Sequence record: PZ787841.1 | Length of the DNA: 47,035 nt | Source: a phage | Strand: one strand, 5' to 3' | In this document: in pieces, positions 1 to 47,035 of the stretch | Numbering within the stretch: position 1 is the first letter of the stretch | How the letters are laid out: every line of letters starts with the position of its first letter | Position numbers and translations under genes: made by a program | The notes under the pieces: model-generated | Seen by the model: only the letters and a program-made list of their open reading frames with translations | Databases searched by the model: none | Told to the model about the DNA's origin: nothing

Positions 1-168
1 CATGGAAACCATTTCGCCCTTGGAGGTGTCTTTTACCCAACCTGACAGCCAGTATCTTCAACCCCGGCGACGTTGATGCTGCCTTTGTAGTCGGGTTGTT
101 TGCTGCCGGGAGTCTTGCGGTCGTTGGTAAACAACGCGCCACGGTTGGTGTTATCGTATTGTGTCATC
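1..168 (-). CDS. Small conserved hypothetical protein, 5' part only; the ORF runs off the window start
   Basis: ATG at 166-168 behind a GGAGA RBS; reads MTQYDNTNRGALFTNDRKTPGSKQPDYKGSINVAGVE, then continues in another frame (YWLSGWVKDTSKGE). Confidence 0.4.
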
Positions 169-4842: not shown

Positions 4843-4851
4843 ATTATACCA
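4843..4851 (-). promoter_or_regulatory. Extended -10 element TGGTATAAT (minus strand) upstream of the secreted-protein gene
   Basis: Plus-strand attatacca at 4843-4851; no good -35. Confidence 0.3.
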
Positions 4852-5022
4852 TGGTCGATGCCGGATGCGAGTATTGTTTTGCATCCCAACGTATTTTATT
4901 TTTTCTGAATGGCTACATAGGTCTTCGGCGACACGTTAGTGGGTCTTCCGGCAGGCCGTCATTGTCGGCGATAAGAGTCTTTGCTCACACCTTCAGACTG
5001 GACGAGTTGACTGTGTTCTGTA

Positions 5023-24292: not shown

Positions 24293-25357
24293 TTACTTTC
24301 TTACGATCGTAAATGCGCTCCCAGTTGGTCGCCGACGGAGGTCAGCCCAACTTGCGTTCTTCACCGCCACGCCGTCATCGGTCGAACCGTTGCCAGTCAG
24401 TGTGGTGGCGTTGAACTTGTACCCGGTCGGGTCCAGCAGCCACGTTTTACGGGAGAACAGCGTCTCGACGCCGCCACCGTGACCGCCAGATGGGGAACGA
24501 TCGATTTCGTGCGGAACGCGCGGCGTACCGTTGCCGTAGGTCAGAGAACCTGCACCGAACAGCACGGTCAGGTAGGTACGGGTCGGGCCGCTACCGAACG
24601 TCGGCATGGAGTCATCAATGACCACACGGCAGTTCTTGTACGACAGGTACAGGAGGTTGCCTTCGGAGTCGCGGATGTACTCGATTTCGTTGTTCTTGGT
24701 GATGCGCTTCGCCACCATGGAATGCATGGCTACAACGCCCAGATTGCCGACGTGGTCGCCCATCGTAAACTGCGCGTCTACGAAGTTGTTCACGTTGAAA
24801 TCTGCTCGCCGACGTCCGCATAACCGGAGGCGTCGACCACCATGTCGCCGCCGTTCGCCGCCACGTTGTCGTTGTACAGGCCAACGACGGTAGCGATGAT
24901 GCGCTTCTGGAACTGACGTGCCCAGTAGTTGTCTACACGGTTCGCCATGCGCTGGTTCGGAGAAGAACCTGCCAGCTCGGTGACGAGGTCTGCCGCAGCC
25001 CAGCTGTTGTTCAGGAGGAACGCAATGCGTGCGGTCTGCTCAGAGTTCGTTTTGTCCGGCGTGGAGTGATCGGCTGGGTTGTCGTTCGAGTAGTTCGGCT
25101 CGTCTAGACGCGTCAAATCGATTCCAGTGCGGCAGGGTGATAGTGGAACCACCATTTGCCAGCATGCTGTTAATGAGTGGGGAAGAGCGCATCACGCCGG
25201 AATCGGCAAACGCGGTCAATTCCACGTTGTGGTTGACGGAATAGCTGGTAAACAGGTCCGGGATATATGCATCCGTCAGGGCCACTGTGCCAGCCGCGCC
25301 CGCCAACGTGGGCGCGATGTAGTCAGGAACTAAGATACCGCCTGCTGTCTTTTTCAT
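24293..25357 (-). CDS. Major capsid protein
   Basis: ATG at 25355-25357 (MKKTAGGILVPDYIAP...); ORFs 25040..25534, 24790..25155, 24293..24793; position between scaffold-like and neck genes. Confidence 0.6.
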
Positions 25358-25379: not shown

Positions 25380-25990
25380 TCGTTTGAGTTGTTCCGGGTC
25401 TTCTTTCGCAGTCTGGCACGCTCTGCTTCCGGCATGTTCCGCGCGGTTTCACGGTATACTGCTCGCTCTGCCCACCCGGTCCACGTTGTCCACCAGTACC
25501 AGACCCGCCCTTGGCAGTCAGGAACGGTTCCCATTCTTTCACCTGAGCGAGCTCTCCGCGAGATCGTCGAGTGTCATCGCAGACACCGCACCGTCTTTGT
25601 CCAAAACCCGCGTCACCACTTACCGTCTTCATCGATTTCTGCGGTCAGACGTCGGGCCACGTGGTGTTCCATAGCGGACGGCACCTTGAGGAGTTCAGAA
25701 GCCAGTTTAGCAGTGGCTTCGCCCACGGTCGAGGTTGAGATGCTCGCCTTTAGTTACCCTCGGCGGCTTCACTTGCTGCTGCTTAGCTCCGCGATTTGCT
25801 TCTTCTAGGACGCTTCGAGTGCTTCCACATCCGGGCCACCTTTGCCGCGAGACTTGTCATTCCGAGGTCGGTGACCTTCAGTTCCAGTCAGCCAGCTTCT
25901 GGCGCAATGCCTTGTTGGCGTCCTTCTCGTGGTCACGCGCACGGCGCATGGTGTCGAGTGAGGTTTCGTCGAACAGACCCTTCGATGTCG
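25380..25990 (-). CDS. Scaffolding-like protein
   Basis: Charged, helical, fragmented ORFs immediately upstream of the capsid gene; position-based call. Confidence 0.3.
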
Positions 25991-28791: not shown

Positions 28792-30259
28792 TTATCCGTG
28801 GCGGCGCAACTGGACGTCAACACCTGCCATTGAGTTATCGATTTCGTTCAACACTGCATATCGTACGTCATCGTAAACGTGGTCTTCGGCTTTGGTGTCC
28901 ACGTCATCGAACTTTTTCGGGTCGCGCGGCGGCACTGGTAGGGTCGTGCGGAAGGCATTGCATCGATGCATGGCGTAGATGCCCGGCTCTTCCTCGTTTT
29001 CCTTGACTGCTTCGAGTCGGTCGCGCACAAGCTGCAAGCCGTTGGTACGGGAACCGGGGGACTTGTTGGCCCGCTCCCAGTAGACGCCCACGTCTGACAT
29101 CTTGTCGGCGATGGTCGGCTCGTCGTCGCCCTCGTTCTGGTTGAGTATCTGTCCGTCTGCGACCCCTGAATAAGGCATTTTACCCATCCAGCCGCTTTCG
29201 TACCATTCTGTGTCTCTCTCGAGGATACCTTCTCCAACCTTGCGAGCTGCCATCTTTAGAGCCCTTGTTAGACCCTACCTTCTCGGTGCCGTACCACTCC
29301 GCGATACGGATAAGGGAACCCGCCTGCAGAAATACGACCCATCGGGCGGCTTGACCTCCTCACCGTTGGCGATGGCCCACAGCCCGTAGCTGAACGGGTG
29401 AGTGCTGCCCAGTCGAGAAGGTGCGGAAGAATTCGCCACGATTCCGGTACTTTGAAATTCGGCACCATGACCCGGTCGGTCCACACGTCATCGATAGCAC
29501 CACCCGCGACGATGTTCCAGTCACCCGTCTTCATGGCCTTGACCAGCTCAGGAGAACCGAGGCCGGACAGACGTGCTCATAGCCGGGGTCGTTTTTCAGC
29601 AGCAGATCTGGTTGTCCGCCAGCTTCGCGGGGATGTATTGGCGGAGCATACCGCCCTCGTCCTCGGCTGTGCGTGAAATGGCATAGTGTGCCTGATAGTC
29701 GACAAACGCGGCCTTAACCCAGTTGTGGACCAATGCTGCCGGGGTTCGACCCGTTCGTGATAAACGGCAGCTTCTCGCGGTACTCTGGCGGTGGCGACCA
29801 CTGACCGAGACGCACACGACCACGGAGGAAGGTATACTCGGCTTCTAGGAAGTGGGTCAGCTCGTCCATCAGCAGAATGTGGATTTCGGCACCTTGGTAC
29901 TTCATCAGGTTCTTTTTATGCTGCAGGTGGCACAGGTGGATAGTGGACCCGTTGGTAAAAGAATCTTGTTGTCTGACAGAATGCGGCACTGACCAGCTCG
30001 ACCAGCGGGTTGAGCATGACCGGGAAAGAGGAACCACCCTCCATGTGGTTCAGGTAGAGGTCGCCGTAGTTGCGGCGGAAGATGTAAATCTGGACACCGG
30101 GGCACTCCATCGCGTAAATCATAGCCAGAGCACGCATCAGGTGCGACTTCCCGCCGCCAGCTGCTCCGCCGTACAGGATTTCAGTCGCCTTGCTCGATAA
30201 AAGCGAATCCCTGTTTCGGTTGCAGGGACAGGTTGACTTCCGGTGCCATTGCTTGCATC
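28792..30259 (-). CDS. terL: Terminase large subunit
   Basis: ATG at 30257-30259 (MQAMAPEVNLSLQPKQGFAFIEQ); Walker A YGGAAGGGKS after stitching; ORF 29916..30137; nuclease-domain region in ORF 28792..29253. Confidence 0.85.
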
Positions 30260-32447: not shown

Positions 32448-32912
32448 CTAAGCAGGAAAGCCTGCTGGTCCAGTGCCGCCTTCACGGGCTGGCGGTCGTC
32501 GATTATGCGGCCCGTCGGTGAGGTCTTCATGCTTCAATCCCCCGTCCGATGGCTTCGTCGTAGTCGCGAGAGTCCTGCATTTGAAAAAGAGTTCGTCCGG
32601 GCAGGGCTCCGGGCGCTTCGAGGCCATTCTCGCAGCATAAGCTGCACGGTACGGGCGCATGGCACGCCACCAGTTGTACCCGTGGACGTCGCCCAACAGG
32701 TAGGTTGACACGGCGCACGGGGTGTGCATCGCGTAGGCCAGTACTTCGAGCAGCTCTTCTTCGCGCTCTTTCAGGAAGACCTCGCGGGTGCGGTACTCGC
32801 TGCCGTTTGCGTAGTAGTCTTCCAGCTGGTCGCGGATGTAGGCCAGCATGTCCAGAAGCTCGTTGCGGTTGGTCATGGTGCAGCGGGTAAAGCCAATAAG
32901 TTCGAGTTTCAT
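32448..32912 (-). CDS. Hypothetical protein
   Basis: ORF 32448..32912 (MKLELIGFTRCTMTNRNELLDMLAYIRDQ...), no motif recognised. Confidence 0.3.
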   Translation of the reverse strand: MKLELIGFTRCTMTNRNELLDMLAYIRDQLEDYYANGSEYRTREVFLKEREEELLEVLAYAMHTPCAVSTYLLGDVHGYNWWRAMRPYRAAYAARMASKRPEPCPDELFFKCRTLATTTKPSDGGLKHEDLTDGPHNRRPPAREGGTGPAGFPA

Positions 32913-32928
32913 CTCTTATCTCCGGTGT

Positions 32929-33295
32929 TTAGTGCCCCAACCCTTGACTGTACGATGGATGGGGGTCGGTGTCAATTAGTTTGCAGCGTCCCAGTACTTC
33001 ATGTCGATGACGCCAGCCGCCTGCATCTTCTCCAGCAGGCCATAGGCTGAGTCGCTGCACTGCGGTAGATGTCGTGGTATCCGCACTCGTCGTCGCCGAC
33101 CACCGTCTGGAAGCCACCAGTGAACAGGCGGTAGTGATGCCACACTTTACCGTCGATGCGACGCAGGGCCACACATGCGTTCACGTCGGTGTCCATGCCG
33201 TCCTCGGTCATCACTTCGTGCAGGTCGTCCGAGCGCTCGATGAAGAGTTCAAACAGCGGGGTTTGCTCTGGATAGCCCATAATACCCACTGGCAC
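32929..33295 (-). CDS. Hypothetical protein
   Basis: ORF 32999..33295 (MPVGIMGYPEQTPLFELFIERSDDLHEVMTEDG...). Confidence 0.3.
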
Positions 33296-33338: not shown

Positions 33339-33461
33339 TTAGTACGCCACGCCAGAGTGCAGACGGGTTTTCATGTAGCGGGCCACGATAGCCTTCGCTT
33401 GTTCTGCGGTGTCTGCGTCGTAGGTCGCGATGGTCTTGCTGCAAAACTTGAACTTGGTCAT
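33339..33461 (-). CDS. Small protein (40 aa) behind a consensus promoter
   Basis: MTKFKFCSKTIATYDADTAEQAKAIVARYMKTRLHSGVAY; leader CAACCaCCCGGAGATgcAGAGATG resembles the other promoter-proximal leaders. Confidence 0.35.
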   Translation of the reverse strand: MTKFKFCSKTIATYDADTAEQAKAIVARYMKTRLHSGVAY

Positions 33462-33501
33462 CTCTGCATCTCCGGGTGGTTGGGGTCGTGCTGTAATCTT
33501 T

Positions 33502-33563
33502 ATTATACCAAAGCCCCAACTCCCTGTCAATGGTCGATGCACGAGGATGCGACCTTTGTCACA
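33502..33563 (-). promoter_or_regulatory. Consensus sigma70 promoter TTGACA-17-TATAAT (minus strand) with an upstream TGTGA-N6-TCGCA palindrome
   Basis: Plus-strand attata at 33502-33507 and tgtcaa at 33525-33530; palindrome (plus strand tgcgacctttgtcaca) at 33548-33563. Confidence 0.55.
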
Positions 33564-33747
33564 CGAAGCACGGGTTCAAATAGTTGGGATGTGGCACTCG
33601 TCACGCAGCACTCGGAGGTCGGTCTGTGTTCCATCGAGCGGTCGTTCGAGCATAAGAGGAGGGGGACTCGACGGAACGTTCTTTTTATGTGTATCTACAT
33701 AAGCTAATCTTGACAAGATAGGCACTCTCATGCGTTCGGGTCTTTTT

Positions 33748-33962
33748 GTTCCATTGCGTTCCACCATCGTTCCACTATGCCCGGAACAACCCTCCTAAAC
33801 ACGCGCGTAAAAGGGAAACCGCGTCGGTCGCGGACTCTCTCGCCTCGGACGGCAGTTCAGCTATGTCTGTTCCATTGTTCCATCTCCGAATATTAAGTCT
33901 CATATTGTCGGCCGCCGACAGTTTCGATTCTCGCGGACGTAAGAGTGGAACAGGGGAACAGG
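33748..33962. repeat. Iteron-rich element, copy B (same architecture as 9421-9620)
   Basis: tgttccat/cgttccac repeats at 33758-33780; gttccattgttccatc at 33869-33884; palindrome TGTCGGCCGCCGACA at 33906-33920; ggaacaggggaacag at 33947-33961. Confidence 0.7.
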
Positions 33963-33989
33963 CCATCGAGCGCTGCCCATGGCGCTGCT

Positions 33990-34910
33990 ACCCCGGCCCC
34001 AATCCCCCTTTTTAATGTATTCAGCAGACCTGAGACCGTGGTTTTCAGCTGCTGCTCCCGGCGCTTGGCCACAGTGCCGCTTATCGTGTTCCCACAGGCC
34101 ACGACCATGCCCGACAGCTCCAGGACCGACAGGAATTTGTCCTTGCTCTCCATCAGTGCGACCATCAGGCTATCGACCAGCATCACATCACCATCATCCA
34201 CAGGTCGGTCGACCACTACCGCCTGCAGTGCTGCCTTAATCCCCATTCACGGTACTGGCGACTGTGAACTGCTCACGACCAGCTGCGTTTGTCTCTTGCT
34301 CCCGACATCGGTCAGGGAGAGCACGTATTCGTATTCATTTTCGTCTTCTTCACAGTCCCACCCCGTCCATCAGCTCATTAACACCGTCACCTCACGAGCG
34401 CCCATCGGCAGCTCGACCCGATACCAAGCCTTCAGTCCGGTCTTCGCAGTCGAAGCGAGTGCGTCCATTGCCACCCGGTGGTATTCGTTCACCAGAGGAA
34501 CCAGCCACGGGGTCACGCCAGCCAGAGCAGCAATCAGCTGGTTTTCCAGCATCTCGGCACTCAAATCCTGCCCAGCACCCGCAGGTCAGGACAGGCTTCG
34601 CTGCCACGGTTGCTCGAGCTTCCACCCACCAGCACCGACACATCAGCGTATTTTCTCGTATAATCGGTCCCCGCTATCGCAGTTATGGTCCGCACGCCAC
34701 CAGTGCTGCGTACAAGCTCACCACCCACCGCAACCACGTTCCCACAGTCCCGGATAAGCATCTCGGTCAGTCCACGCTCTACATCCACCCCACAACGTCT
34801 GAACGCCTCGACCGTCTTTCCCAACCTCTGTAGCCGTACCAACGACCGTCGACTCGAACCCATCAGCCCAGATGGTGGTTATCTGGAATTTCTGACCTTC
34901 GCCTTTAGTA
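33990..34910 (-). CDS. Cluster of about three small hypothetical ORFs lying between the two halves of repeat copy B
   Basis: Minus ORFs 34561..34863, 34370..34564, 33893..34246; no motif recognised. Confidence 0.3.
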
Positions 34911-34947
34911 TTCATTTTGTTCACCTTTTGCATCCGACAGTTTATTT

Positions 34948-35055
34948 CAGTATTTAGCAAACGAGAAGCTCTCCGTGAACCTCTCGTATTGACCCGCTAC
35001 ATCAGTATTCCCGACCCCCCTCAGGTCAAGGGAAGTACCAGCCGTTTGCACTCTT
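34948..35055. repeat. Conserved ~100-bp element, copy B, directly 3' of the AP2-like gene
   Basis: gcaaacgagaagcTctccgtgaa ... 52 nt ... gaagtaccagccgtttg; internal hairpin ccct-N7-aggg. Confidence 0.6.
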
Positions 35056-35449
35056 GCGTATTCTCCACCACGTCGAGGTTTTCACCCTCTTCTCTGGACT
35101 TCCTCAGGGCGTCGACTACATTAGCCGAGTTTGTACCTTGCTCAGGATTTCGGCCTGAAGGTAGGCCACGTGGGGTTCTGGACAGTCCGACCATCGGATA
35201 CAGCACCACAGACTCGAAGGCCCGCAGGGTATCTTTCAGCCGCTGGTTGGTGCTTTTATTAATCAGGTCACGGAAGGGTGCTGCGGTGCGGTAGGTGGTG
35301 AACAGATGGACGTAGGCACCGACAGACGTCAGTCCACGTGCCACGAAGTAGGTGTTGCGGTCCCCGTGCATCAGGCGGGCCATCCATGTGCCATCGCTGC
35401 GTGCGATATGTACATAGACCTTCGGGGTGTTTTTGGTGTCTTTCATGTT
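35021..35449 (-). CDS. AP2-like DNA-binding domain protein
   Basis: MKDTKNTPKVYVHIARSDGTWMARLMHGDRNTYFVARGL...AYVHLF (W-A-R / YLG-like AP2 pattern); no catalytic domain seen. Confidence 0.35.
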   Translation of the reverse strand, partial: NMKDTKNTPKVYVHIARSDGTWMARLMHGDRNTYFVARGLTSVGAYVHLFTTYRTAAPFRDLINKSTNQRLKDTLRAFESVVLYPMVGLSRTPRGLPSGRNPEQGTNSANVVDALRKSREEGENLDVVENTQECKRLVLPLT

Positions 35450-35494
35450 GTCATCTCTTATCCAGCAGATCCAGCGGCTTGCCGGGGGAAGTTT

Positions 35495-35542
35495 AGTATA
35501 GCACACTTCCCCCAACCTGCTAACCTATGAACAACGTTGTTT
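35495..35542 (-). promoter_or_regulatory. Sigma70 promoter TTAGCA-17-(TGc)TATACT (minus strand) with upstream perfect palindrome AACAACGTTGTT
   Basis: Plus-strand agtata at 35495-35500 and tgctaa at 35518-35523; aacaacgttgtt at 35531-35542. Confidence 0.45.
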
Positions 35543-35622
35543 GGCGTGCTTATACGTTTCCTTATATAAGGATCGCCGGCTGTGTGCCAGTCGTGCCAGG
35601 TCCACCTGTACGACACCGAGGG

Positions 35623-35898
35623 TCAGGCAGCATGAACTGTGGGTTCGTCGCCGGGCGCTACACCCGTGCCATCCCTCGATACAGGCCAGCGGCTGTATAC
35701 CAGTACAATCCCGGCGGGGAGCAGCCATTCACGGTGCGCGATTCGCCCGACGTTCGGACCGAGCAGGTTCGCCCGGTACAATGCAGCACATACATCGGAA
35801 TCGAGGAAGACGGCGAGAAGCAGGGCGATAGCCACGCCAAAAGCGACCTCCCACGTGGTCAGCGCCGCGATTTGCAGCATCAGGTTGTTCGATAACAT
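35623..35898 (-). CDS. Small membrane protein
   Basis: MLSNNLMLQIAALTTWEVAFGVAIALLLAVFL... (C-terminal part of ORF 35623..36180). Confidence 0.3.
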   Translation of the reverse strand: MLSNNLMLQIAALTTWEVAFGVAIALLLAVFLDSDVCAALYRANLLGPNVGRIAHREWLLPAGIVLVYSRWPVSRDGTGVAPGDEPTVHAA

Positions 35899-35920
35899 TC
35901 TCCGGTTTGGGTTTTTGGTA

Positions 35921-36382
35921 CTACGCCCCAGCATAACACGGGGCGCACTGACTAGCAAGCTTGACCATAAGACAAAAGGCACTGACCTTTTTCGGTTCGG
36001 CCTCTTTCGTAGCCTCGCGCCGGGCTTCTTCGGCCTGCTGGCGGATTCGATCGATGCGGGCCTCGGCACGTTTTGCCTTGCGCACGGCCTTGTCCTTCTC
36101 ATTGGTACAGTGAAGGCAGATAAACCGGACGTGACGCCAGACCCGTGGGCCTCCACAGTGCCGGCAGATGGTCTTGTCACGTTTTATGCGCAGGTAAATC
36201 CCGTGCTGGTGGGCGTACATCCGCAGCGCCGGAACCGAGCGATCAAGTGCCGCCGCCATTTCCGCAGCGGTCTTTATTCCCGCACCCGCTACAATGTAGC
36301 TCGTGTTCCCGCTGGGTCCCATCTTCCCCTGCCAGCGGCCCTTTATGGTCCTGTTGTGACGCGGTGCTTTCGAGGTCATCAA
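35921..36382 (-). CDS. Zinc-finger protein, possible DNA-binding regulator
   Basis: Intact 153-aa ORF; CRHCGG...CLHCTNE cysteine pairs followed by a basic, helical tail. Confidence 0.35.
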   Translation of the reverse strand: MMTSKAPRHNRTIKGRWQGKMGPSGNTSYIVAGAGIKTAAEMAAALDRSVPALRMYAHQHGIYLRIKRDKTICRHCGGPRVWRHVRFICLHCTNEKDKAVRKAKRAEARIDRIRQQAEEARREATKEAEPKKVSAFCLMVKLASQCAPCYAGA

Positions 36383-36580
36383 GCAAGTCCCCCATCGGGT
36401 TCTGGATTATGAAGTCCGGCGACGAGGTCTTCTTTGCTGTAGTGCTTAATTTGTGATACAGCCGCGATCGATGCAGGAGACACTGCCTCCATGACACCAT
36501 TCACGTTCACTATGTACGCCGCCCCGTGAACTGGGCTATCTTCAGCGCCCTGTCCATCGAGTTTTCGGTATCGTCGGTTT

Positions 36581-37211
36581 TCAGTTGGTCCACTTGGTAT
36601 CTCCATAAAAGACCAGCCGTTGCTGACTGATGAAATCACACCACCAGACCAGAATGTAGCCGATGAAGTAGGCGGCCGGTTCATCATTCGTCACATCGTG
36701 CTCGATGTCATAGTTCTGGTAGATGTAGTTCACTGCGTGGTAGGCTTCATGGGCCATGCTCGCAGGTTCCTGTCCGGTCCCACAGCGCACCAGCATGAAG
36801 ACGCAGTAGAAGTTAGCGCCCGATAATCGTAGACGCGGCCCCCGGACACCGGACCCATATCCTGAAGCCCGAAGTATGGACCAGCTCCTGCAAATCGTCG
36901 GTATGGACGAAGACCAGCTGGGCCGGGTAAACACCCGCCTGTATCAGGGCGTTGTGGTCCCCGACCCATTCTTTCAGTTCTTCAAAGTTCTTGGCATAAG
37001 CAAAAAGGCGGTTGCCCGCCTCCTCCGGTTTACACGATTTCCGCGTGTTTCGCTTTCTTCGAGATCGACAGGAACGTCTCCATGTCGATATGAACCAGTC
37101 AGCGTTCGCCAGCTTCGGCGGCGGCGCATCTTCCGGCGGTCGGTACATGGTGGCCTCGATCGACCAGGCCGAATTCCAGCGAGAGGTTGATGTACGGCTT
37201 GTTGTGCCCAT
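36581..37211 (-). CDS. HExxH-motif protein (possible zinc metallopeptidase, SprT/ImmA-like)
   Basis: MAHEAYHAV in ORF 36581..36934; upstream part in ORF 36813..37211 in another frame. Confidence 0.25.
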
Positions 37212-37860
37212 CGTTCGGTAGGTTGGTCTTCACCAGCACCGACTCGTCGCGGGCCAGTAGCTCCATCACCTGTTCCAGTCGCTCGGTGTACCCCTGCAGC
37301 TCCAGTTTTTCGTCGCAGGTGTCAGGTAGCGGCGGGTCACGTCATCCAGCACGCCTTCGCGGTCATTCTGGTCAGCCATCTTTCTTCTCCATCAGTTCAT
37401 ACCATACCACATAAGGCCACACTACGATCGCAATAAGGGTGGCGATTGCGAAGGCCCACACTGGCGCGTAGCGCTTGTTGATGACGTCATCCAGTACCGC
37501 CAGCGCCGCCACGAACAGACCAACCCACAGATACCACAGAATCAGCCATGCATCTTCGTCTTCCTCTTCTTCCTGCGTGTCGTAGTCTTGGACAGGTCGG
37601 CGGTCACTACCGGGCGTTCATGGTAGCGGCGGTCGGTCGGGCTTGACAACTCGGCACCCATGAAACGGGCGACCGTGCCGTCTTCCCGGCGCACGTCGTA
37701 GGTGTAGCTGTCGAACATTGGGTGGAAGGTGGCGGCAGCGATAAGCCCCAGCCCGGTGATGGCGGCGTCGGCAGACGACCTGTAAACCACCTTCGTGCCC
37801 ACCGGGTACTTCGGCTTCTTTGCGGTCTTGCGACGGAAGTCTGGCACTTTCTTTTTCATC

Positions 37861-38521
37861 TCAACGTCTCTTGGTCAGTGTAGCCAGTTGCGCCTTAAGC
37901 GGCGCTTTGATGGCTTCGGTCACCGCCACCCGGCCCAGATAGGTCGGCTGGATAGAGCTCGACTCAACGTTCTTTTGTGGGGTGTTCCAGTAGGGCATCG
38001 TCTCCCAGCTGTAGACCCAGCCTTCGAGGTCGCAGGTGATGATGTTCGCCTCGTTGGACACATTATACCATGCCTTCCCCGCGAGTTCAACCCCGTCCCA
38101 CAAATACGGGCTACGCTGCCCGATCACCTGGTCTTTTTCGCAGGCTGTCGGCGAACTGCTTTGCCTTTGCCTGCTCGGTCAGGTGGGCAATAATAAGGCC
38201 GATAAACGTCAACAGACCCCCGCATATCGCCATCGTCGCCAGCATGGCTATCCCGGTTAGTACCTTCTCCATTCGTCGCGCTCCTGTAGTCAGTACGGAT
38301 ATCACACGGCTGTCGGCGCGTGGAAACCACAGGAAATGGTCCTCCTGCGTCTTCAAGTTCCACACCGTCAGCAGCACGTCATACACGCCACGGTAGCCGA
38401 CCTCACGGGCATAGTAGACACCATCTGGCACCTTCTCGTCGTTCTTCACTTCGATGTAATGGTCGGTCAGTTCGGGCCAGTCATGCACCCTTGGCATATG
38501 CAGATAAAAGAACTCCGGCAT
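37861..38521 (-). CDS. Hypothetical protein with a central transmembrane segment
   Basis: ORF 38111..38521 (TGIAMLATMAICGGLLTFIGLIIAHL), continuing in ORF 37861..38127. Confidence 0.3.
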
Positions 38522-38880
38522 GAGCAGGGAGGCACCTGCGTCTCTTCACGCTCCGACTTCGCCAGCGCGATATGCAGGTCGAAATATTCCGCCACTTCGT
38601 CATCGCGGCGCTCAATTGCCCGCACCTGCTTGCGCATTGTCTTCATTGCGCGGCGGTTGGACCGCCACCAGCTATGTTTTTTCATACGTCATCCCATCTC
38701 TTGGCTGCACTGAATTTCGGGGTTTCTGCCCGTGCCACTCGTCCCAAGATGTAGTCCGGGCGGCGGGCGTCTGGTTGTGGACAGATGGCGAGGATACGCC
38801 AGCCTTTGTCCAGAGACCTCTGGATGAGGTCTGTACAAGCATCTTCACACAGCATAAGCTCATTCATTGCCATCAGTCCC

Positions 38881-39381
38881 TCACCGGGCTGGCGGGAGTT
38901 GGTGACGGTATTCGAACATCATGCGACTAGCCCGGCCCAGCTGGTCGATGACCTTCTCGTTCAGCTTAATCAGGCTTTCCATGAAGAGAATGCCCGATTG
39001 CTCCGGTTGCGCGGCGGGTGGCACCACGTCCACGGTCCGGGACTTCCGCACATGCACCTCGATACCGAGGTCCAGCAGGTTCATATACTCGGTATCCTGA
39101 ATCTCCGCGTCGAAGTCGCGGTAGTACGGGTACTGCTCCAGCAGTGAGGCCAGCTTCGTGTGGTCCTGCGTCAGCTCCTGCCAGCTGTTCTGGCGGTTGT
39201 CCTCACCCACCGCGTATTTGGCTGGTGGGTAGTAGCGGAACCCAAAAGGCGGGTCACGCCGGGCGTCCTCGGTCGGCAGCACTCGCAGCTCCGGGTGAAG
39301 CTCTGCCATCTTCTGCTGGGCCGGGGTCAGCTTGTCAGCGTACCCCATAGCCACGTTGACGTCAATCAGCCGGACTTTCAC
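38881..39381 (-). CDS. Hypothetical protein
   Basis: Intact 166-aa ORF MKVRLIDVNVAMGYADKLTPAQQ... Confidence 0.35.
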   Translation of the reverse strand: MKVRLIDVNVAMGYADKLTPAQQKMAELHPELRVLPTEDARRDPPFGFRYYPPAKYAVGEDNRQNSWQELTQDHTKLASLLEQYPYYRDFDAEIQDTEYMNLLDLGIEVHVRKSRTVDVVPPAAQPEQSGILFMESLIKLNEKVIDQLGRASRMMFEYRHQLPPAR

Positions 39382-39635
39382 TTATCACCACCTACATTGT
39401 TGGAAGTTGATGATGGTGATGTGCTGCGGTTTGGGCGCTTTCGACGAAGGCCCAGATGAAGGCACCGACCCAACCCAGCAAGGTCCAGCCCAACAGCAGA
39501 TCGAGGAAGAATACCGCCAGTTTGTTGTGATGCCCGTTCAGGCACGCCGCGATAGTCGGCAGGAAGTACGAGCAGATGATGACGATAAGGGTGGCTGGAG
39601 GAGTCATGATTGTTTCCTCTCTTTCATGGGTTAGG

Positions 39636-40020
39636 TCAGGCCGACTTTTTGGTGCGCTTGGCATATGACCCGCGCGGTTTGTCGGATACACGGCACTCGT
39701 TCCCGGCGTAGTTGAAGCCGTCGTCCTCGCGGAACTCGGCCCGGCCCGGATGTCGTACTCTTTGATGTTGGTAGATGGCACGGGTTGACGTGCTCACGGG
39801 CGCGGCGAGTGGCACCGAACTCGGTGGACTCACCGTAGTGGTTGCGGTTGCAGGTCGGGCAGTTGATGTCGGGATGACGGCGTTGTGGAAGTGTGCATCA
39901 TGGTAGCCGTCCTTCAGCGTGGCGGTGGCGCCGCACGAGTCACAAATAAGGGTGGCGGTGAAGTCGTTCCCGTGCTGGTGGGTGATGGTCTGGACTTTTC
40001 TCTGTATCTCCGGGTGGTGC
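39636..40020 (-). CDS. Zinc-ribbon protein
   Basis: CDSCGAT...CPTCNRNHYGE after stitching; GGAGA RBS before the start. Confidence 0.3.
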
Positions 40021-40035
40021 TGGGTTTATTAGCCT

Positions 40036-40200
40036 TTATACTGGATTGCGGTGCCGTCGAAGTAGATACACATAACCATAGCACCCTTGCGCAGCAGAAC
40101 TGAACCGAGGTCGGTTCTCGAACTCGGTCCAACCCTGCGCGGTCGCTTTTGCCACCGATACTGCCTGCTGGTTAGTTGCTTTCATCTCTAAATCTCCGGT
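40036..40200 (-). CDS. Small protein behind promoter b
   Basis: CAACCGGAGAtTTAGAGATG leader, MKATNQQAVSVAKATAQGWTEFENRP... Confidence 0.3.
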   Translation of the reverse strand, partial: TGDLEMKATNQQAVSVAKATAQGWTEFENRPRFSSAAQGCYGYVYLLRRHRNPV

Positions 40201-40228
40201 TGGTGCTTTGTGCTGCTTCTGAATTTTT

Positions 40229-40300
40229 ACTATACCATAGGGTTGGGGTGTTGTCAATCCCCCAACTTATCTCTATGTAGAAGATGTGACACGCATCACA
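40229..40300 (-). promoter_or_regulatory. Consensus sigma70 promoter TTGACA-17-TATAGT (minus strand) with an upstream TGTGA-N6-TCACA palindrome
   Basis: Plus-strand actata at 40229-40234 and tgtcaa at 40252-40257; palindrome tgtgacacgcatcaca at 40285-40300. Confidence 0.55.
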
Positions 40301-40809
40301 CTCTTAGTGTCCGACCCATATCTTGTCGGTGAACCGCAGCACCGGGACATACAACGACTTGTCGAGGCTTTTGAGTCTGCACGAGGGCATCAGGTTCGGA
40401 CTCCCACACAAACGGCACGTTGTCATCGTAGCCTAGGGCCGGGTCATGCACCACCGGGGTGAAGTCGCGGCAGTCGACCACCAGCGCGTGGAACTCCACC
40501 TTTGACCGCGAAGACCAGATAGATGTTCCCGGTTTCCAGCCAGTGGCCCGCTGCGATGTCCACGGTCGCCGTTCGGATCGACAGGAGACTGGCACAGGCT
40601 TTCAGGTTCGCCGACCGGGTGTACAGGTCGTGGATATTGGTATAAAGCTCTTCCGTGATATCAATATCGGACATCATGAGCAAGCAGGCGGTCACGCAGG
40701 ACCGACGGGTGGCTTGTAGGACTTCGCGGATGGGTTTCATATACATTGCCTTTAGAAGAGAACGATTCGGCGGGTATTGTTGCCCCCGCCGTCGAACAAA
40801 AGATGGGTA

Positions 40810-41665
40810 CTATGGGAGGCGGCCGACGACTTCCAGCACCTTGCACACGGCATCAGAAGACCCGGAGATGGTCGTCGTCTGCTCCGGTGACACCGTCGAA
40901 TAGGTCAGGTAGTCATCGCCGACCACTTCGCCGACCTGCGGCACGCAGTCGATGCCCACCCCGCCGTGGTACACTTCGCTGTGAACGCTGACACCACGCA
41001 TCATGTCGCCGAAGTCGGTGTCACCCGCCACCGTGTCCGCGAAGGTATCGGCACCGTGCAGTCGGTCGATGACCCCCTGCTTCTGGTCGATGGTCATCTC
41101 GTGCAGGCGGACTGTATCCCGTAGGGTATGATTGGCCTGTTGCGCCTCTTCCAGCGCCTCCATCAGGTAGGAACTGCTGCTTGGCCTTCGCCACATCTTC
41201 GTGTGCGTCTGCTATCTCGGCACGCAGACGGGCCACGATACCATCGGCGTGCTTCAGCGGTGACGCGTCTGCAACCACGGCTTCCGGTTCACGCAGGCCA
41301 TCGAACATGCCGGAGATGTCCATGCCGAGCGCCTGCAGGATCACCAGCACCGACATAGCCGAGACTACATCCCGCAGGCCCACGTAGTAGTGGAAGCGCA
41401 CAATCATCTCTGACACGTAGACGTCGGCCTTGTCCAGTTCGCGGGCTTCGATGATGTCCACCGAGTCGCCAAAACGCTGGTTCAGGTACACGATAGCCTG
41501 CCCCACCTTCGGGCTTTCCATCTTGCCGTCCGGTCCTTCCACCTTGACCGGGGTCGCGGTCACCCACGGTGGCTGCTGGTTCACCTGCGGCGGTTGCGGC
41601 ACGTTCGGGGTTTTCTCGCCCACTACTGGACGGCGGCGTTTCATTGGTTCGGTCATTTTACTCAC
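40810..41665 (-). CDS. Hypothetical protein (about 280 aa)
   Basis: ORFs 41021..41665 and 40810..41196 in two frames; no motif recognised. Confidence 0.35.
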
Positions 41666-41863
41666 CTAAAGCTTGCGGATTTTTACTAGCCCATGATGCG
41701 GTGGTCAGGGGCAGGGAGTGCACACGGCCTTTCTTGTCGTCGTGGAAGGCCGCGAAGTCGGTGTCGAGCGGGTTGCGGATACGACGACCAACTTGACATT
41801 GGTGTGCAGGCCGCGAGACTGGTACACAGACCAGATACCCGGAGATGTGGCGCGGATAAGCTA

Positions 41864-41981
41864 CCATAAGACCCCCGCCAGCAGGATCACTGCCAATACT
41901 ACCGCGAAGCCGTACCATGTTGCGCGGCCTGCTTCACGTGCTGGGTTCTCGGTGGTGTACTCGAACAGTGTATTTGTTCAT
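41864..41981 (-). CDS. Small membrane peptide behind promoter c
   Basis: CAACCCGGAGATgaAGAGATG leader, MNKYTV... then WYGFAVVLAVILLAGVLW after a frame break. Confidence 0.3.
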
Positions 41982-42022
41982 CTCTTCATCTCCGGGTTGG
42001 TGGGGGCTTTGCCCCTGAATTT

Positions 42023-42083
42023 AGTATAACATAGGGGTTGGGGCGCGTAATATTTGGTATGCGAAGATGTGACCTATGTCACA
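42023..42083 (-). promoter_or_regulatory. Extended -10 promoter TGtTATACT (minus strand) with an upstream perfect TGTGA-N6-TCACA palindrome
   Basis: Plus-strand agtata at 42023-42028; palindrome tgtgacctatgtcaca at 42068-42083, centred near -60. Confidence 0.5.
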
Positions 42084-42501
42084 GTTTACCCCGCTGCACT
42101 GCCTCCTTCTCGCGTCTGGTCATCATGGTTTTTACCCTAATGGTGGTGTCGATGACCTGCTCGTTGTAAAGCAGGTCCATCCACTGGATGATCGGGCCAT
42201 GTCGCCCTCGAACTTCTGCGACTGAATCTGCCAGTAGGTGACGTGGGGTAGTACATCACCGTCCGGGTCAGGTTGAAGCGCACACTGCGCATTTTCGGGT
42301 CGATTTCGAACTCACAACCCTTGAACTGCCGCCGCTGTCGTCCATCTGCTGGACCAGAGCGGAGGCAATGCCCATAACTGGGCTTGTGTTGTTTTCAGCT
42401 TGGCAGTCATTAGTATTCCACCTTAGGCAGGGATTCCATTTCATAGCGGCGCATAGCGCCACGCAGCACGTTTCCGAGGTTCATGCGTTGCATTCCGGGG
42501 T

Positions 42502-43348
42502 TCAGATGCCGTAGCGGTTCTGCAGGTCGGAGAGGCTGCAGGTTGTTTTCTTGTTGCCAGTCCCCACGTGGTCGATGCCCAGCACTCGCAGCACTTCGGC
42601 GGTGTAGCGGTAGACGTCGGAGATATCCATGCCGCGCAGAGCAGACGCCACGTAGTCCACGATGTAGATGGTCTTGCGCCCGGTAGTAGTGACGCCCAGC
42701 CCGACCGTGTAGCGGTCCATGTCCGGGTCAACCTTGTAGTTGCCGTTGAAGTCCACGCCCCAGTCGCACGCTTCGCAGTTGCAGACGGTGCTTTCGTGTT
42801 CCAGCACTCCGTCCGGGTTCACCTTGCCGAATACCAAGTCTTTGCTGTTGACGCTCGGGCAGGCTTTGAGGGCGAACAGATTAGCGCGGGTGATGCGCGG
42901 TGCTTTGGTCACGCGTTCGATGCGCTCGGCTTCTTTGCGCTCGGCTACACGTTCCATCACTTCGCGGCCTTTCGCGTTGCCACGGTTCATCAGCATAGCC
43001 GCCATGCCGGATGGCTTGCGCGGGGTTTCGTCGTGCTCTTCGGCGATATGCTCTGCCAGCGATTCGGCGCTCAGGAACTCGCAATCGCACTTCTCGCACA
43101 GGTGGGTGTTGTCGAGGTTGAAGGATACCTCGGGTGATTCTTGTCGCCAGCGGCGGACAGGGTTTCGATGGCTTGGTCGAAGCCAACTTCAGCGAGAGCT
43201 TCGAGCGCGGCTACGGTCGCCGGGTCGCTGTCTACTTTGCCAGAACGGATTTTGCGGGTTGCACCATTTTCGTCGGTATAGGTCACCCAACCGTTATTGA
43301 TGCTCGCGCGACTTGCACTAATTTGCCGTCTACGATAGCCTTGCTCAT
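42502..43348 (-). CDS. Zinc-finger protein (about 280 aa), candidate early regulator
   Basis: AGGAGA RBS and ATG at 43346-43348 (MSKAIVDGKLVQVARASI...); HLCEKCDCEF...EHIAEEH and CNCEACDWG motifs; ORFs 43071..43286 and 42502..43005. Confidence 0.4.
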
Positions 43349-43396
43349 TGTGTATCTCCTAATCTCTCATTGCCGGGGGCGTTGCCCCGAATCTTA

Positions 43397-43461
43397 AGTA
43401 TAACATAGAGTTGGGATTTGCGCCAAGCATCGACATAATCGAGAGTGTGACCTTTGTCACG
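43397..43461 (-). promoter_or_regulatory. Sigma70 promoter TTGGCG-18-(TGt)TATACT (minus strand) with an upstream TGTGA-N6-TCACg site
   Basis: Plus-strand agtata at 43397-43402; tgtgacctttgtcacg at 43446-43461; leader hairpin GGGGC-gtt-GCCCC at 43375-43388. Confidence 0.45.
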
Positions 43462-46781: not shown

Positions 46782-47035
46782 TTTATTGCTCCTGTGCATT
46801 TGCACGTTGTTTTAAGTTTAGGGTTGTACTGCGGTACTGCGTGTTCTCGGAGTGGGATGTCGTCGTCGAAGTCCATCGGCGGTTCGCTGCTCTGGTTCGA
46901 CGGGTTGTTGCCCCATCCACCTTGCTGCTGGTTCTGCTGCGGCTGCTGGTTGGCACCCAGCTGGCGCGGACCCTGTGCACGGGCCTGTGTGTTCTGGCGG
47001 GTGTTGGCACCGGGGCCGTCTTTCGGTTCTACCGA
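46778..47035 (-). CDS. ssb: Single-stranded DNA-binding protein, C-terminal part only (gene starts beyond the window end)
   Basis: Gln/Gly/Pro-rich tail ending PPMDFDDDIP, characteristic of the bacterial-type SSB C-terminal tip. Confidence 0.6.
   Translation of the reverse strand, partial: SVEPKDGPGANTRQNTQARAQGPRQLGANQQPQQNQQQGGWGNNPSNQSSEPPMDFDDDIPLREHAVPQYNPKLKTTCKCTGAIK

Follow-up and report, generated by a model that had tools for sequence, protein, structure and literature searches.

A conserved family of predicted host-type promoter-leader cassettes in a PMBT28-like phage that carries purZ

The phage genome and its promoter-leader cassettes

The phage sequence PZ787841.1 (47,035 bp, analysed over its whole length and called the window here) has a G+C content of ~57.5% and carries nearly all of its genes on the minus strand. 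A preliminary description of this DNA had proposed that a family of strong sigma-70-type promoters with a shared leader recurs between positions 33339 and 43461. The promoter family is real, but its description was imprecise and in part reflected frameshift artefacts. Its members are copies of one promoter-leader cassette, conserved in the relatives of the phage and predicted to be read by the RNA polymerase of the host.

The gene order of the window is that of four siphoviruses of 47-48 kb, namely Salmonella phage PMBT28, phage PSA28 and the Klebsiella phages VLCpiS6a and vB_Kpn_K21lambda1. Identity at the DNA level is ~75% to PMBT28 and PSA28 in the structural and replication modules and ~67% to all four relatives across the promoter region (33339-43461), and searches with megablast and blastn against phages gave no relative closer than ~75%. 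An SSB-like gene spans both ends of the window (1-167 and 46850-47035), and because it continues from position 1 to position 47035 the window is a complete, circularly permuted genome. Directly 3' of this gene and of its cassette promoter, P202, the minus strand carries a purZ-mazZ-datZ cluster (46781-44220), the products of which match PurZ (phrog_1211, E = 3e-23), MazZ (phrog_801, E = 2e-33) and DatZ (phrog_7076, E = 3e-38) and the genes of which are 46-94% identical to their PMBT28 counterparts. The purZ, mazZ and datZ genes of PMBT28 put 2-aminoadenine (dZ) into DNA in E. coli (PMC12944874; bioRxiv 10.1101/2025.10.22.683976), and to judge from its gene content the window phage very probably replaces adenine by 2-aminoadenine as well. 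It is best read as a virulent siphovirus of the PMBT28 group, with purZ, mazZ and datZ and without a gene for RNA polymerase. None is annotated in any of the four relatives, in which only tail proteins reach the necessary size (~1000 amino acids), and the lack of such an annotated gene supports reliance on the polymerase of the host.

When all 68 PMBT28 proteins were compared with the window by tblastn, nearly every gene was found to be split over two to five frames (e.g. 46781-46340, 43348-42416 and 2103-248), and alignment of the purZ DNA revealed single-base deletions in the window that do not fall in homopolymers. The record has the look of an assembly that was error-prone or left unpolished, possibly from long reads of modified DNA. 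As these deletions split the frames, the lengths of open reading frames (ORFs), and in part the details of single promoters, are unreliable. The ORFs of 40-60 amino acids that had been noted behind each promoter are accordingly for the most part truncations of longer genes, and the promoters do not each drive a short early ORF; they head operons of one to nine genes, which include replication genes and the SSB-purZ-mazZ-datZ series.

A profile hidden Markov model was built from 20 class A cassettes of the four relatives, with no window sequence included, and its full-length matches in the window number six, every one of them on the minus strand, at E values from 7.5e-9 to 1.3e-4. Just four of the six (with -10 elements at 43397, 42023, 40229 and 33502) lie within the reported interval; those at 32947 and 202 lie outside it. 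Also beyond the preliminary description are the CRP-like palindromes upstream of some cassettes and the purZ context. Every cassette occupies an intergenic position on the coding strand, at a distance of 25-60 nt 5' of a start codon. The two hexamers together score 12/12 at 33530-33502, 11/12 at 40257-40229 and 9-10/12 in the others, with spacers of 17 bp, or 18 bp at P43397 and P202, and TATGg, TATGt or TGTGc stands 5' of the -10 in P43397, P42023, P40229, P35495 and P33502.

P43397 (43397-43426; profile match 43430-43351, E = 1.3e-4) reads TTGGCG-18-TATACT with the extended -10 TATGt and CCCAACTC in its spacer. Its leader hairpin GGGGC-aac-GCCCC (43376-43388, dG -9.1) begins 2-3 nt after the predicted +1 and is followed by the ribosome-binding site (RBS) and start GAGAGATTAGGAGATACACAATG (43346-43372) of a gene for ~305 amino acids, the homologue of a 305-amino-acid PMBT28 protein (43348 to ~42416), which occupies four frames in the window. 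P42023 (42023-42051) gives the best profile match (42048-41979, E = 7.5e-9) and reads ATTACG-17-TATACT, again with TATGt, around the spacer CCCCAACCCC; its weak -35 could be a TTGACG that lost one G through an assembly deletion. The hairpin GGGGC-aaa-GCCCC (42003-42015) and the RBS/start CAACCCGGAGATGAAGAGATG (41979-41999) follow. P40229 (40229-40266; profile match 40260-40183, E = 6.9e-8) reads TTGACA-17-TGgTATAGT and has no leader hairpin before its RBS/start CCAACCGGAGATTTAGAGATG (40183-40203); GTTGGGG (40266-40260) and CCCCAAC (40248-42) form an inverted repeat around its -35. In P33502 (33502-33530; profile match 33534-33459, E = 8.7e-6) the core is the perfect TTGACA-17-TGgTATAAT, and the spacer GTTGGGG is complementary to CCCCAAC in the leader, which places an inverted repeat around the -10. 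The RBS/start CCACCCGGAGATGCAGAGATG (33459-33479) belongs to a small gene, and this is the only cassette to head a truly small one (56 amino acids in PMBT28).

Of the two cassettes beyond the interval, that at 32910-32975 (profile match 32981-32910, E = 2.4e-6) combines TTGACA-17-TACAGT with CACCGGAGATAAGAGATG and heads an ORF of 154 amino acids. P202 (165-240; profile match 233-165, E = 2.7e-6) reads GTTGGGGG-TTGACA-18-TACAAC with the spacer CCCCCAACCC, then CAACCGGAGACTTAGAGATG, and heads the SSB-purZ-mazZ-datZ operon. Its -10, TACAAC, is without the T at -7, possibly through an assembly error.

The individual promoters that had been named are at the stated positions. TTGACA-17-TATAAT at 33530-33502 is perfect (12/12) and preceded by TG, TTGACA-17-TATAGT at 40257-40229 also has the TG and, at 11/12, is near-perfect, and the extended -10 TGnTATACT occurs at 43397, 42023 and 35495. 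At least six minus-strand promoters were said to share one core, but only those at 40229, 42023 and 43397 carry CCCCAACC(C)-TATGnTATA within 33339-43461, with a fourth copy at 202-220; the spacers of P33502 and P35495 hold GTTGGGG, the reverse complement of CCCCAAC, instead. The CCCCAAC motif thus occurs in spacers in either orientation, and it is part of an inverted repeat around the -35 in P40229, P202 and the PMBT28 cassette at 30186. That the sites are not due to chance is borne out by the core CCCAACCCTATGNTATANT, with 4 matches against 0.05 expected, and by CCGGAGAT, with 9 against 1.44 expected; a loose consensus scan gave 16 sites against 7.4 +/- 2.6 in shuffled sequence (per 17 kb).

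Conservation, leader hairpins and variant promoters

Scanning of the coding strand of the relatives for promoters revealed the cassette in about nine copies per genome. All four genomes share the intergenic positions of these copies, which are stronger than those of the window: four to five of the nine score 12/12 with the TG, and the TG motif is found in nearly all. The general form is (aatata)-TTGACA-17-CCCCAACCtATGgTATAAT, a 5' hairpin and CCGGAGATatAGAGATG, or in detail (a)aTATA/aATAC - TTGACA - gGgCCCCAACCtATGg - TATAAT - aaaatyTCt - hairpin - caaCCGGAGATAtAGAGATG. These cassettes front the SSB-purZ operon, two genes of the replication module and six blocks of small genes; in PMBT28 every one heads an operon, and the first genes behind the nine encode 56-305 amino acids. 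We found no description of the promoters of the PMBT28 group in the literature, and the PMBT28 genome announcement does not mention them.

Similar promoters extend to other purZ phages. Acinetobacter phage Barton, a purZ siphovirus of 48% G+C, has TTGACA-gcaCCCCCAATCTATGT-TATAAT and shares the spacer motif CCCCCAATCTATGT-TATAAT. Distant environmental contigs, found through the 305-amino-acid protein and then shown to carry purZ, contain four to seven perfect TTGACA-17/18-TGnTATAAT promoters per 10 kb with a leader of their own, CTTTTaACCAACCgATAGAGGACA..ATG; the perfect hexamers are retained and the spacer is different. Near-perfect promoters number 59 in 526 kb from 80 purZ loci of IMG/VR against 1 in 486 kb from 63 unrelated IMG/VR loci, a comparison that is confounded by relatedness, and wherever a promoter of the purZ loci was listed at a stricter score cut-off it shares the strand of purZ. 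In IMG/VR, a large clade of environmental purZ siphoviruses carries the cassette ggggtAC-TTGACA-17/18-cGTGgTATAAT-aaagtCTTTTaACCAACCgATAGAGGACA-ATG every 0.3-1 kb in its small-gene region. The generalization that all phages with 2-aminoadenine DNA (Z-DNA) have such promoters was rejected, as cyanophage S-2L has none at a score >= 11.5; it encodes a sigma-like protein.

The leader hairpins start 2-4 nt after the predicted transcription start, have folding free energies (dG) of -9 to -17 kcal/mol and lack a U-tract. They are present in six of the nine cassettes of each relative and in three window cassettes. The exact hairpin GGGGC-N3-GCCCC, which had been taken to follow most promoters, is restricted to P43397 (43388-43376) and P42023 (42015-42003). 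Stems differ among paralogues (GGGGGC, AGGGGC, GGCCCC, GGTGGC, GGCGGG) at a constant position, and one compensatory pair is seen among orthologous hairpins. Most likely, the element is a 5' stem-loop that would shield the mRNA from decay dependent on its 5' end; such stem-loops are reportedly mRNA stabilisers. Terminators and boxB hairpins of the lambda nut type were considered and set aside, given the lack of U-tracts and the variable loop sequences, and searches for known RNA families and tRNAs returned none.

P35495 and three further sites are variants of the cassette. P35495 itself (35484-35523, minus strand; start codon at 35446) reads TTAGCA-17-TGcTATACT, and its -10 falls within the loop that separates the arms of a 9-bp inverted repeat, GGGGGAAGT (35513-35505) and ACTTCCCCC (35492-35484). 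P5882 (5855-5882, minus strand), the orthologue of the PMBT28 promoter at 24520, reads TAGACA-16-TGgTATAAT with GGGCC and GGCCC flanking the -10. The minus-strand promoter at 4843-4871, orthologous to that at 25516 in PMBT28, reads CTCGCA-17-TGgTATAAT, has a leader hairpin and gives a partial profile match (4854-4820, minus strand). A possible further promoter, P35958 (35930-35958, minus strand; TTGCTA-17-TGtTATGCT), has an inverted repeat GCGCCCC/GGGGCG around its -10; the class A profile, run over the whole window, gave no match to this site. What distinguishes the class B promoters, which comprise the orthologues of the PMBT28 promoters at 24520 and 42220 and, in the window, P5882, P35495 and perhaps P35958, is a -10 hexamer in the loop of a G/C inverted repeat of 5-9 bp that keeps its position and differs in sequence between genomes (GGGCCC/GGGCCC in the relatives against GGGGGAAGT/ACTTCCCCC in the window). 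RNAalifold detected no formal covariation in these repeats. Pairing of spacer and leader across the -10 is striking in class B promoters only; as a general rule it was discarded, with matched pairs averaging 5.15 bp and mismatched ones 4.72.

Several other sites in the window resemble parts of the cassette. At 40020-39998 the orthologue of the PMBT28 38316-type cassette keeps only its RBS (CACCCGGAGATACAGAG), the recognisable promoter and the ATG being gone, perhaps through a deletion error. The site at 38090-38062 (TTGAAC-17-TATAAT) was rejected as a member of the family, being intragenic, without leader or RBS and without a profile match. Extended -10 promoter-like sites at 26987-26960 and 18591-18563, within the head-morphogenesis and tape-measure genes, are kept in all five genomes (3296 and 11786 in PMBT28) and may reflect either internal promoters or no more than the conservation of the coding sequence.

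Among the genes and repeats near the cassettes, the ~305-amino-acid protein behind P43397 contains a C2H2-like zinc finger, CxxC-12-HxxxxH, and further Cys pairs (43122-42511); its C-terminal domain is common to all of the distant purZ contigs with promoter arrays, and no family match was found for it. The P40229 operon includes a gene for a small membrane protein (39781-39392, minus strand) with a superinfection-immunity (Imm) domain, PF14373 (E = 2e-16). A near-identical repeat of ~95 bp occurs on the minus strand at 9616-9520 and 33950-33865, within the long non-coding stretches 9770-9290 and 34010-33560. Its form is CTGTTCCnCTGTTCC ... CGCGAGAATCGAArCTGTCGGCGGCCGACAATAT ... GAGATGGAACAATGGAAC, with inverted GTTCC/GGAAC iterons on both sides of a perfect palindrome, and it is a candidate origin, packaging site or array of regulator-binding sites. 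TGGAAC is over-represented in the window (42 against 25 expected), and in the relatives GTTCC repeats stand just 5' of the 43933-type promoter.

Upstream palindromes and the reading of the cassettes

Palindromes of the form TGTGA-N6-TCACA stand 5' of four cassettes and are the only sites in the window with at most one mismatch (1.54 expected). With the start assumed 7 nt after the -10, the 10/10 matches TGTGAcataggTCACA (42083-42068) and TGTGAtgcgtgTCACA (40300-40285) are centred at about -59.5 of P42023 and about -70.5 of P40229. The 9/10 matches are cGTGA-N6-TCACA (43461-43446; centre about -63.5 of P43397), the first half of which overlaps the stop codon of the upstream gene, and TGTGAcaaaggTCGCA (33563-33548; centre about -60.5 of P33502), which is joined by a weaker distal copy (33605-33590, 8/10, centre about -102.5). 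The palindromes fill an additional stretch of 30-45 bp. In the relatives, which lack it, the -35 nearly abuts the upstream stop codon, with the 'aatata' tract in front. All have a common flank, GTCACATCTTC, which suggests that they spread within a copied unit. Pattern scans of IMG/VR and metagenomes with the palindrome alone, with CCCCAACC or with the flank gave chance matches only, none with a cassette, and neither exact-protein look-up nor a protein scan of metagenomes yielded a closer relative in which to follow conservation of the palindromes. Their most likely role would be to bind the CRP-cAMP complex of the host.

We consider it probable, at roughly 0.8, that each non-structural operon is headed by a copy of one cassette read by the sigma-70 RNA polymerase of the host. 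The cassette would consist of a -35 TTGACA, a spacer of 17 (sometimes 18) bp that ends in the extended -10 TRTGn, and a -10 TATAAT or TATACT, followed by a discriminator rich in A/T, a G/C hairpin (in many copies), the C/A-rich and unstructured CAACC, and a strong Shine-Dalgarno sequence with its start, GGAGAT-N5-ATG. TRTGn is the form in which the extended -10 has reportedly been defined. The copies would be paralogues that are held similar by selection and/or recombination, and the window phage alone would have gained, in four of its cassettes, a palindrome of CRP consensus 25-35 bp 5' of the -35, at a class I activator position and in place of the AT-rich 'aatata' tract of the relatives. 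A reliance on host RNA polymerase through a duplicated promoter-leader cassette, as first proposed, is thus supported by comparison, that is, by the conserved cassette and by relatives with no annotated polymerase. The elements as such, their enrichment, strand, intergenic placement and conservation, are matters of observation; they point to a real family of conserved host-type promoter-leader elements, of a kind that is nothing unusual in a virulent phage that lacks a polymerase of its own. What raises its interest is the perfection of the promoters across a clade of presumed Z-DNA genomes, together with the lineage-specific CRP-like sites, which, should they be functional, would tie the promoters of a virulent phage to a global regulator of the host, a rare arrangement. 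In annotation, the cassette can serve as a reliable marker of operon starts in PMBT28-like phages, which are under development for biocontrol and as a source of dZ-DNA enzymes.

Several points weigh against this assignment. The start sites are predicted solely from the position of the -10, and if virion DNA is fully substituted with 2-aminoadenine the reading of these boxes by sigma-70 is itself in question. With about one single-base deletion per few hundred bases of the window, spacer lengths, weak -35 boxes and the odd -10 TACAAC (207-202) may be errors. Four window cassettes have no hairpin, and shuffling of the same G/C-rich leaders gives hairpin energies that are not clearly worse (z = 0 to -3). 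As for the palindromes, none with at most two mismatches lies within 90 bp 5' of any cassette in the four relatives or Barton, their spacing varies by 4 bp within the group near -61.5, and two of them precede core promoters that are already perfect and should need no activator. The sequence of the palindromes and their predicted position would fit a class I CRP site; their loose spacing, the perfect cores and the non-conservation argue for caution.

For the palindromes in particular, a different origin is possible, if on balance unlikely: the cassettes would be sigma-70 promoters, but the palindromes operators of a dimeric regulator of the phage, or copied remnants without function. The common flank suggests copying of one unit, and the distance from palindrome to -10 is not rigid. 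Seven of the eight half-sites extend to TGTGAC/GTCACA, where CRP prefers TGTGAT, and so perhaps represent a different 6-bp half-site. A candidate regulator would be the product of the minus-strand ORF 36382-35921, which has a helix-turn-helix-like segment (IKTAAEMAAALDRSVPALRMYAHQHGI), CxxC...CxxC and a basic coiled tail. None of the four relatives has it, so that ORF and palindromes alike are restricted to the window phage. Its weak match to phrog_323, 'transcriptional regulator, D5-like' (E = 6e-5), is the only sign of a DNA-binding protein among the early-region ORFs, and Pfam, NCBIfam and PDB give it no support. Moreover, two palindromes agree with the CRP consensus at 10/10 and two at 9/10, which is better than most natural CRP sites, and all are at activator-type positions, when repressor operators usually overlap the core promoter.

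It is doubtful, too, that the cassettes are mainly mobile modules for gene gain, loss and exchange, with promoter function secondary, in the manner of the PeSL (promoter-early stem-loop) cassettes of T4-type phages. The latter recur in variable regions as strong consensus sigma-70 promoters that have GGGG...CCCC stem-loops and, upstream, an AT-rich tract (PMC2839356, PMC4122927). The window and PMBT28 differ strongly in gene content between the cassettes; many early genes of PMBT28 have no match, and a GP30.8-like gene has been relocated and now follows P33502 instead of the 35257-type cassette. Cassette positions, however, are largely orthologous across the five genomes, and the stem-loop lies 3' of the start and has no U-tract and is therefore not the upstream terminator of a PeSL. 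Such mobility would in any case be compatible with host-read operon promoters and does not exclude them.

The promoter architecture might also be an adaptation to the 2-aminoadenine genome, which we regard as improbable. With three hydrogen bonds in each base pair, TATAAT would be no easier to melt than its surroundings, and the amino group in the minor groove should spoil readout of UP elements by the C-terminal domain of the alpha subunit. The purZ siphovirus clade would then need every sequence-specific contact, namely a perfect -35, TRTGn and a perfect -10, and the window phage would recruit the alpha C-terminal domain through host CRP, a reader of the major groove. Phage gene expression would in that event be coupled to the cAMP state of the host. 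A literature search found no paper on initiation or transcription of 2-aminoadenine DNA by host RNA polymerase; the cassettes, one of which is predicted to drive the purZ-mazZ-datZ operon itself, form a compact, repeated set of highly conserved consensus promoters that can be made as A-DNA or Z-DNA.

There is little to recommend the idea that the CCCCAAC spacer marks a polymerase modified by the phage, or a phage factor, as T4 middle promoters need MotA/AsiA. A spacer is normally free to vary, and yet CCCCAAYC is kept among paralogues and from the Salmonella and Klebsiella phages to the Acinetobacter phage, with the C-rich motif in either orientation. Against this, hexamers, spacing and TRTGn match the sigma-70 consensus exactly, when factor-dependent phage promoters typically lack one hexamer, the distant purZ relatives have perfect hexamers with another spacer, and no candidate factor was identified. 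That the matches are AT-rich patches arisen by chance in GC-rich DNA is practically excluded, even though the loose scan also gives 7.4 +/- 2.6 sites per 17 kb of shuffled sequence, by the motif enrichment, profile E values down to 7.5e-9, orthologous conservation and confinement to the coding strand 25-60 nt 5' of starts.

Comparison with known systems

The upstream palindromes invite comparison with class I CRP-dependent promoters of the lac P1 type, in which, as is generally known, TGTGA-N6-TCACA is centred ~60-70 bp 5' of the start; two of the four window promoters concerned also have a poor -35. Class I sites, of 22 bp, are said to lie near -61.5, -71.5, -82.5 or -92.5, on one face of the helix, whereas the centres predicted here, -59.5, -60.5, -63.5 and -70.5, do not coincide exactly with any of these, and in the window, where CRP binding is putative, two of the sites stand before perfect cores and relatives have none. 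The leader hairpin may be of the ompA type, a stable 5' stem-loop within ~0-4 nt of the 5' end that no U-tract follows; it starts at +2 to +4 of the predicted transcript and has no U-tract, and its energies are not clearly better than in shuffled leaders. Podovirus phiVC8, another purZ phage (GenBank JF712866), likewise has many annotated predicted promoters of host type, several of which overlap inverted repeats, and in our scan its early strand carries six strong promoters with an extended -10; its spacer and leader sequences are unrelated, however, and it belongs to another virus family with another gene order.

Closer in architecture are the PeSLs, which are also repeated composite sigma-70 cassettes scattered through small, variable, non-structural genes, with an AT-rich tract 5' of the -35 that is found here in the relatives ('aatata' or 'aatac') and is replaced in the window. 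They differ in that their stem-loop is an upstream terminator, while the present one lies in the leader (+2 to +25), lacks a U-tract and adjoins a conserved RBS, and in that the phage itself is a 47-kb siphovirus and not a T4-like myovirus. The early promoters of virulent coliphages, such as T7 A1-A3, T5 P25/P26/N25 and those of T4, are equally multiple and near the sigma-70 consensus. They often have an extended -10 and upstream A/T tracts and capture the host polymerase at the onset of infection, and those of T4 share sequence beyond the hexamers. Unlike these, the cassette described here also heads operons for replication and nucleotide modification, is shared down to its 5' untranslated region and RBS, and is set in GC-rich DNA that is presumably substituted with 2-aminoadenine.

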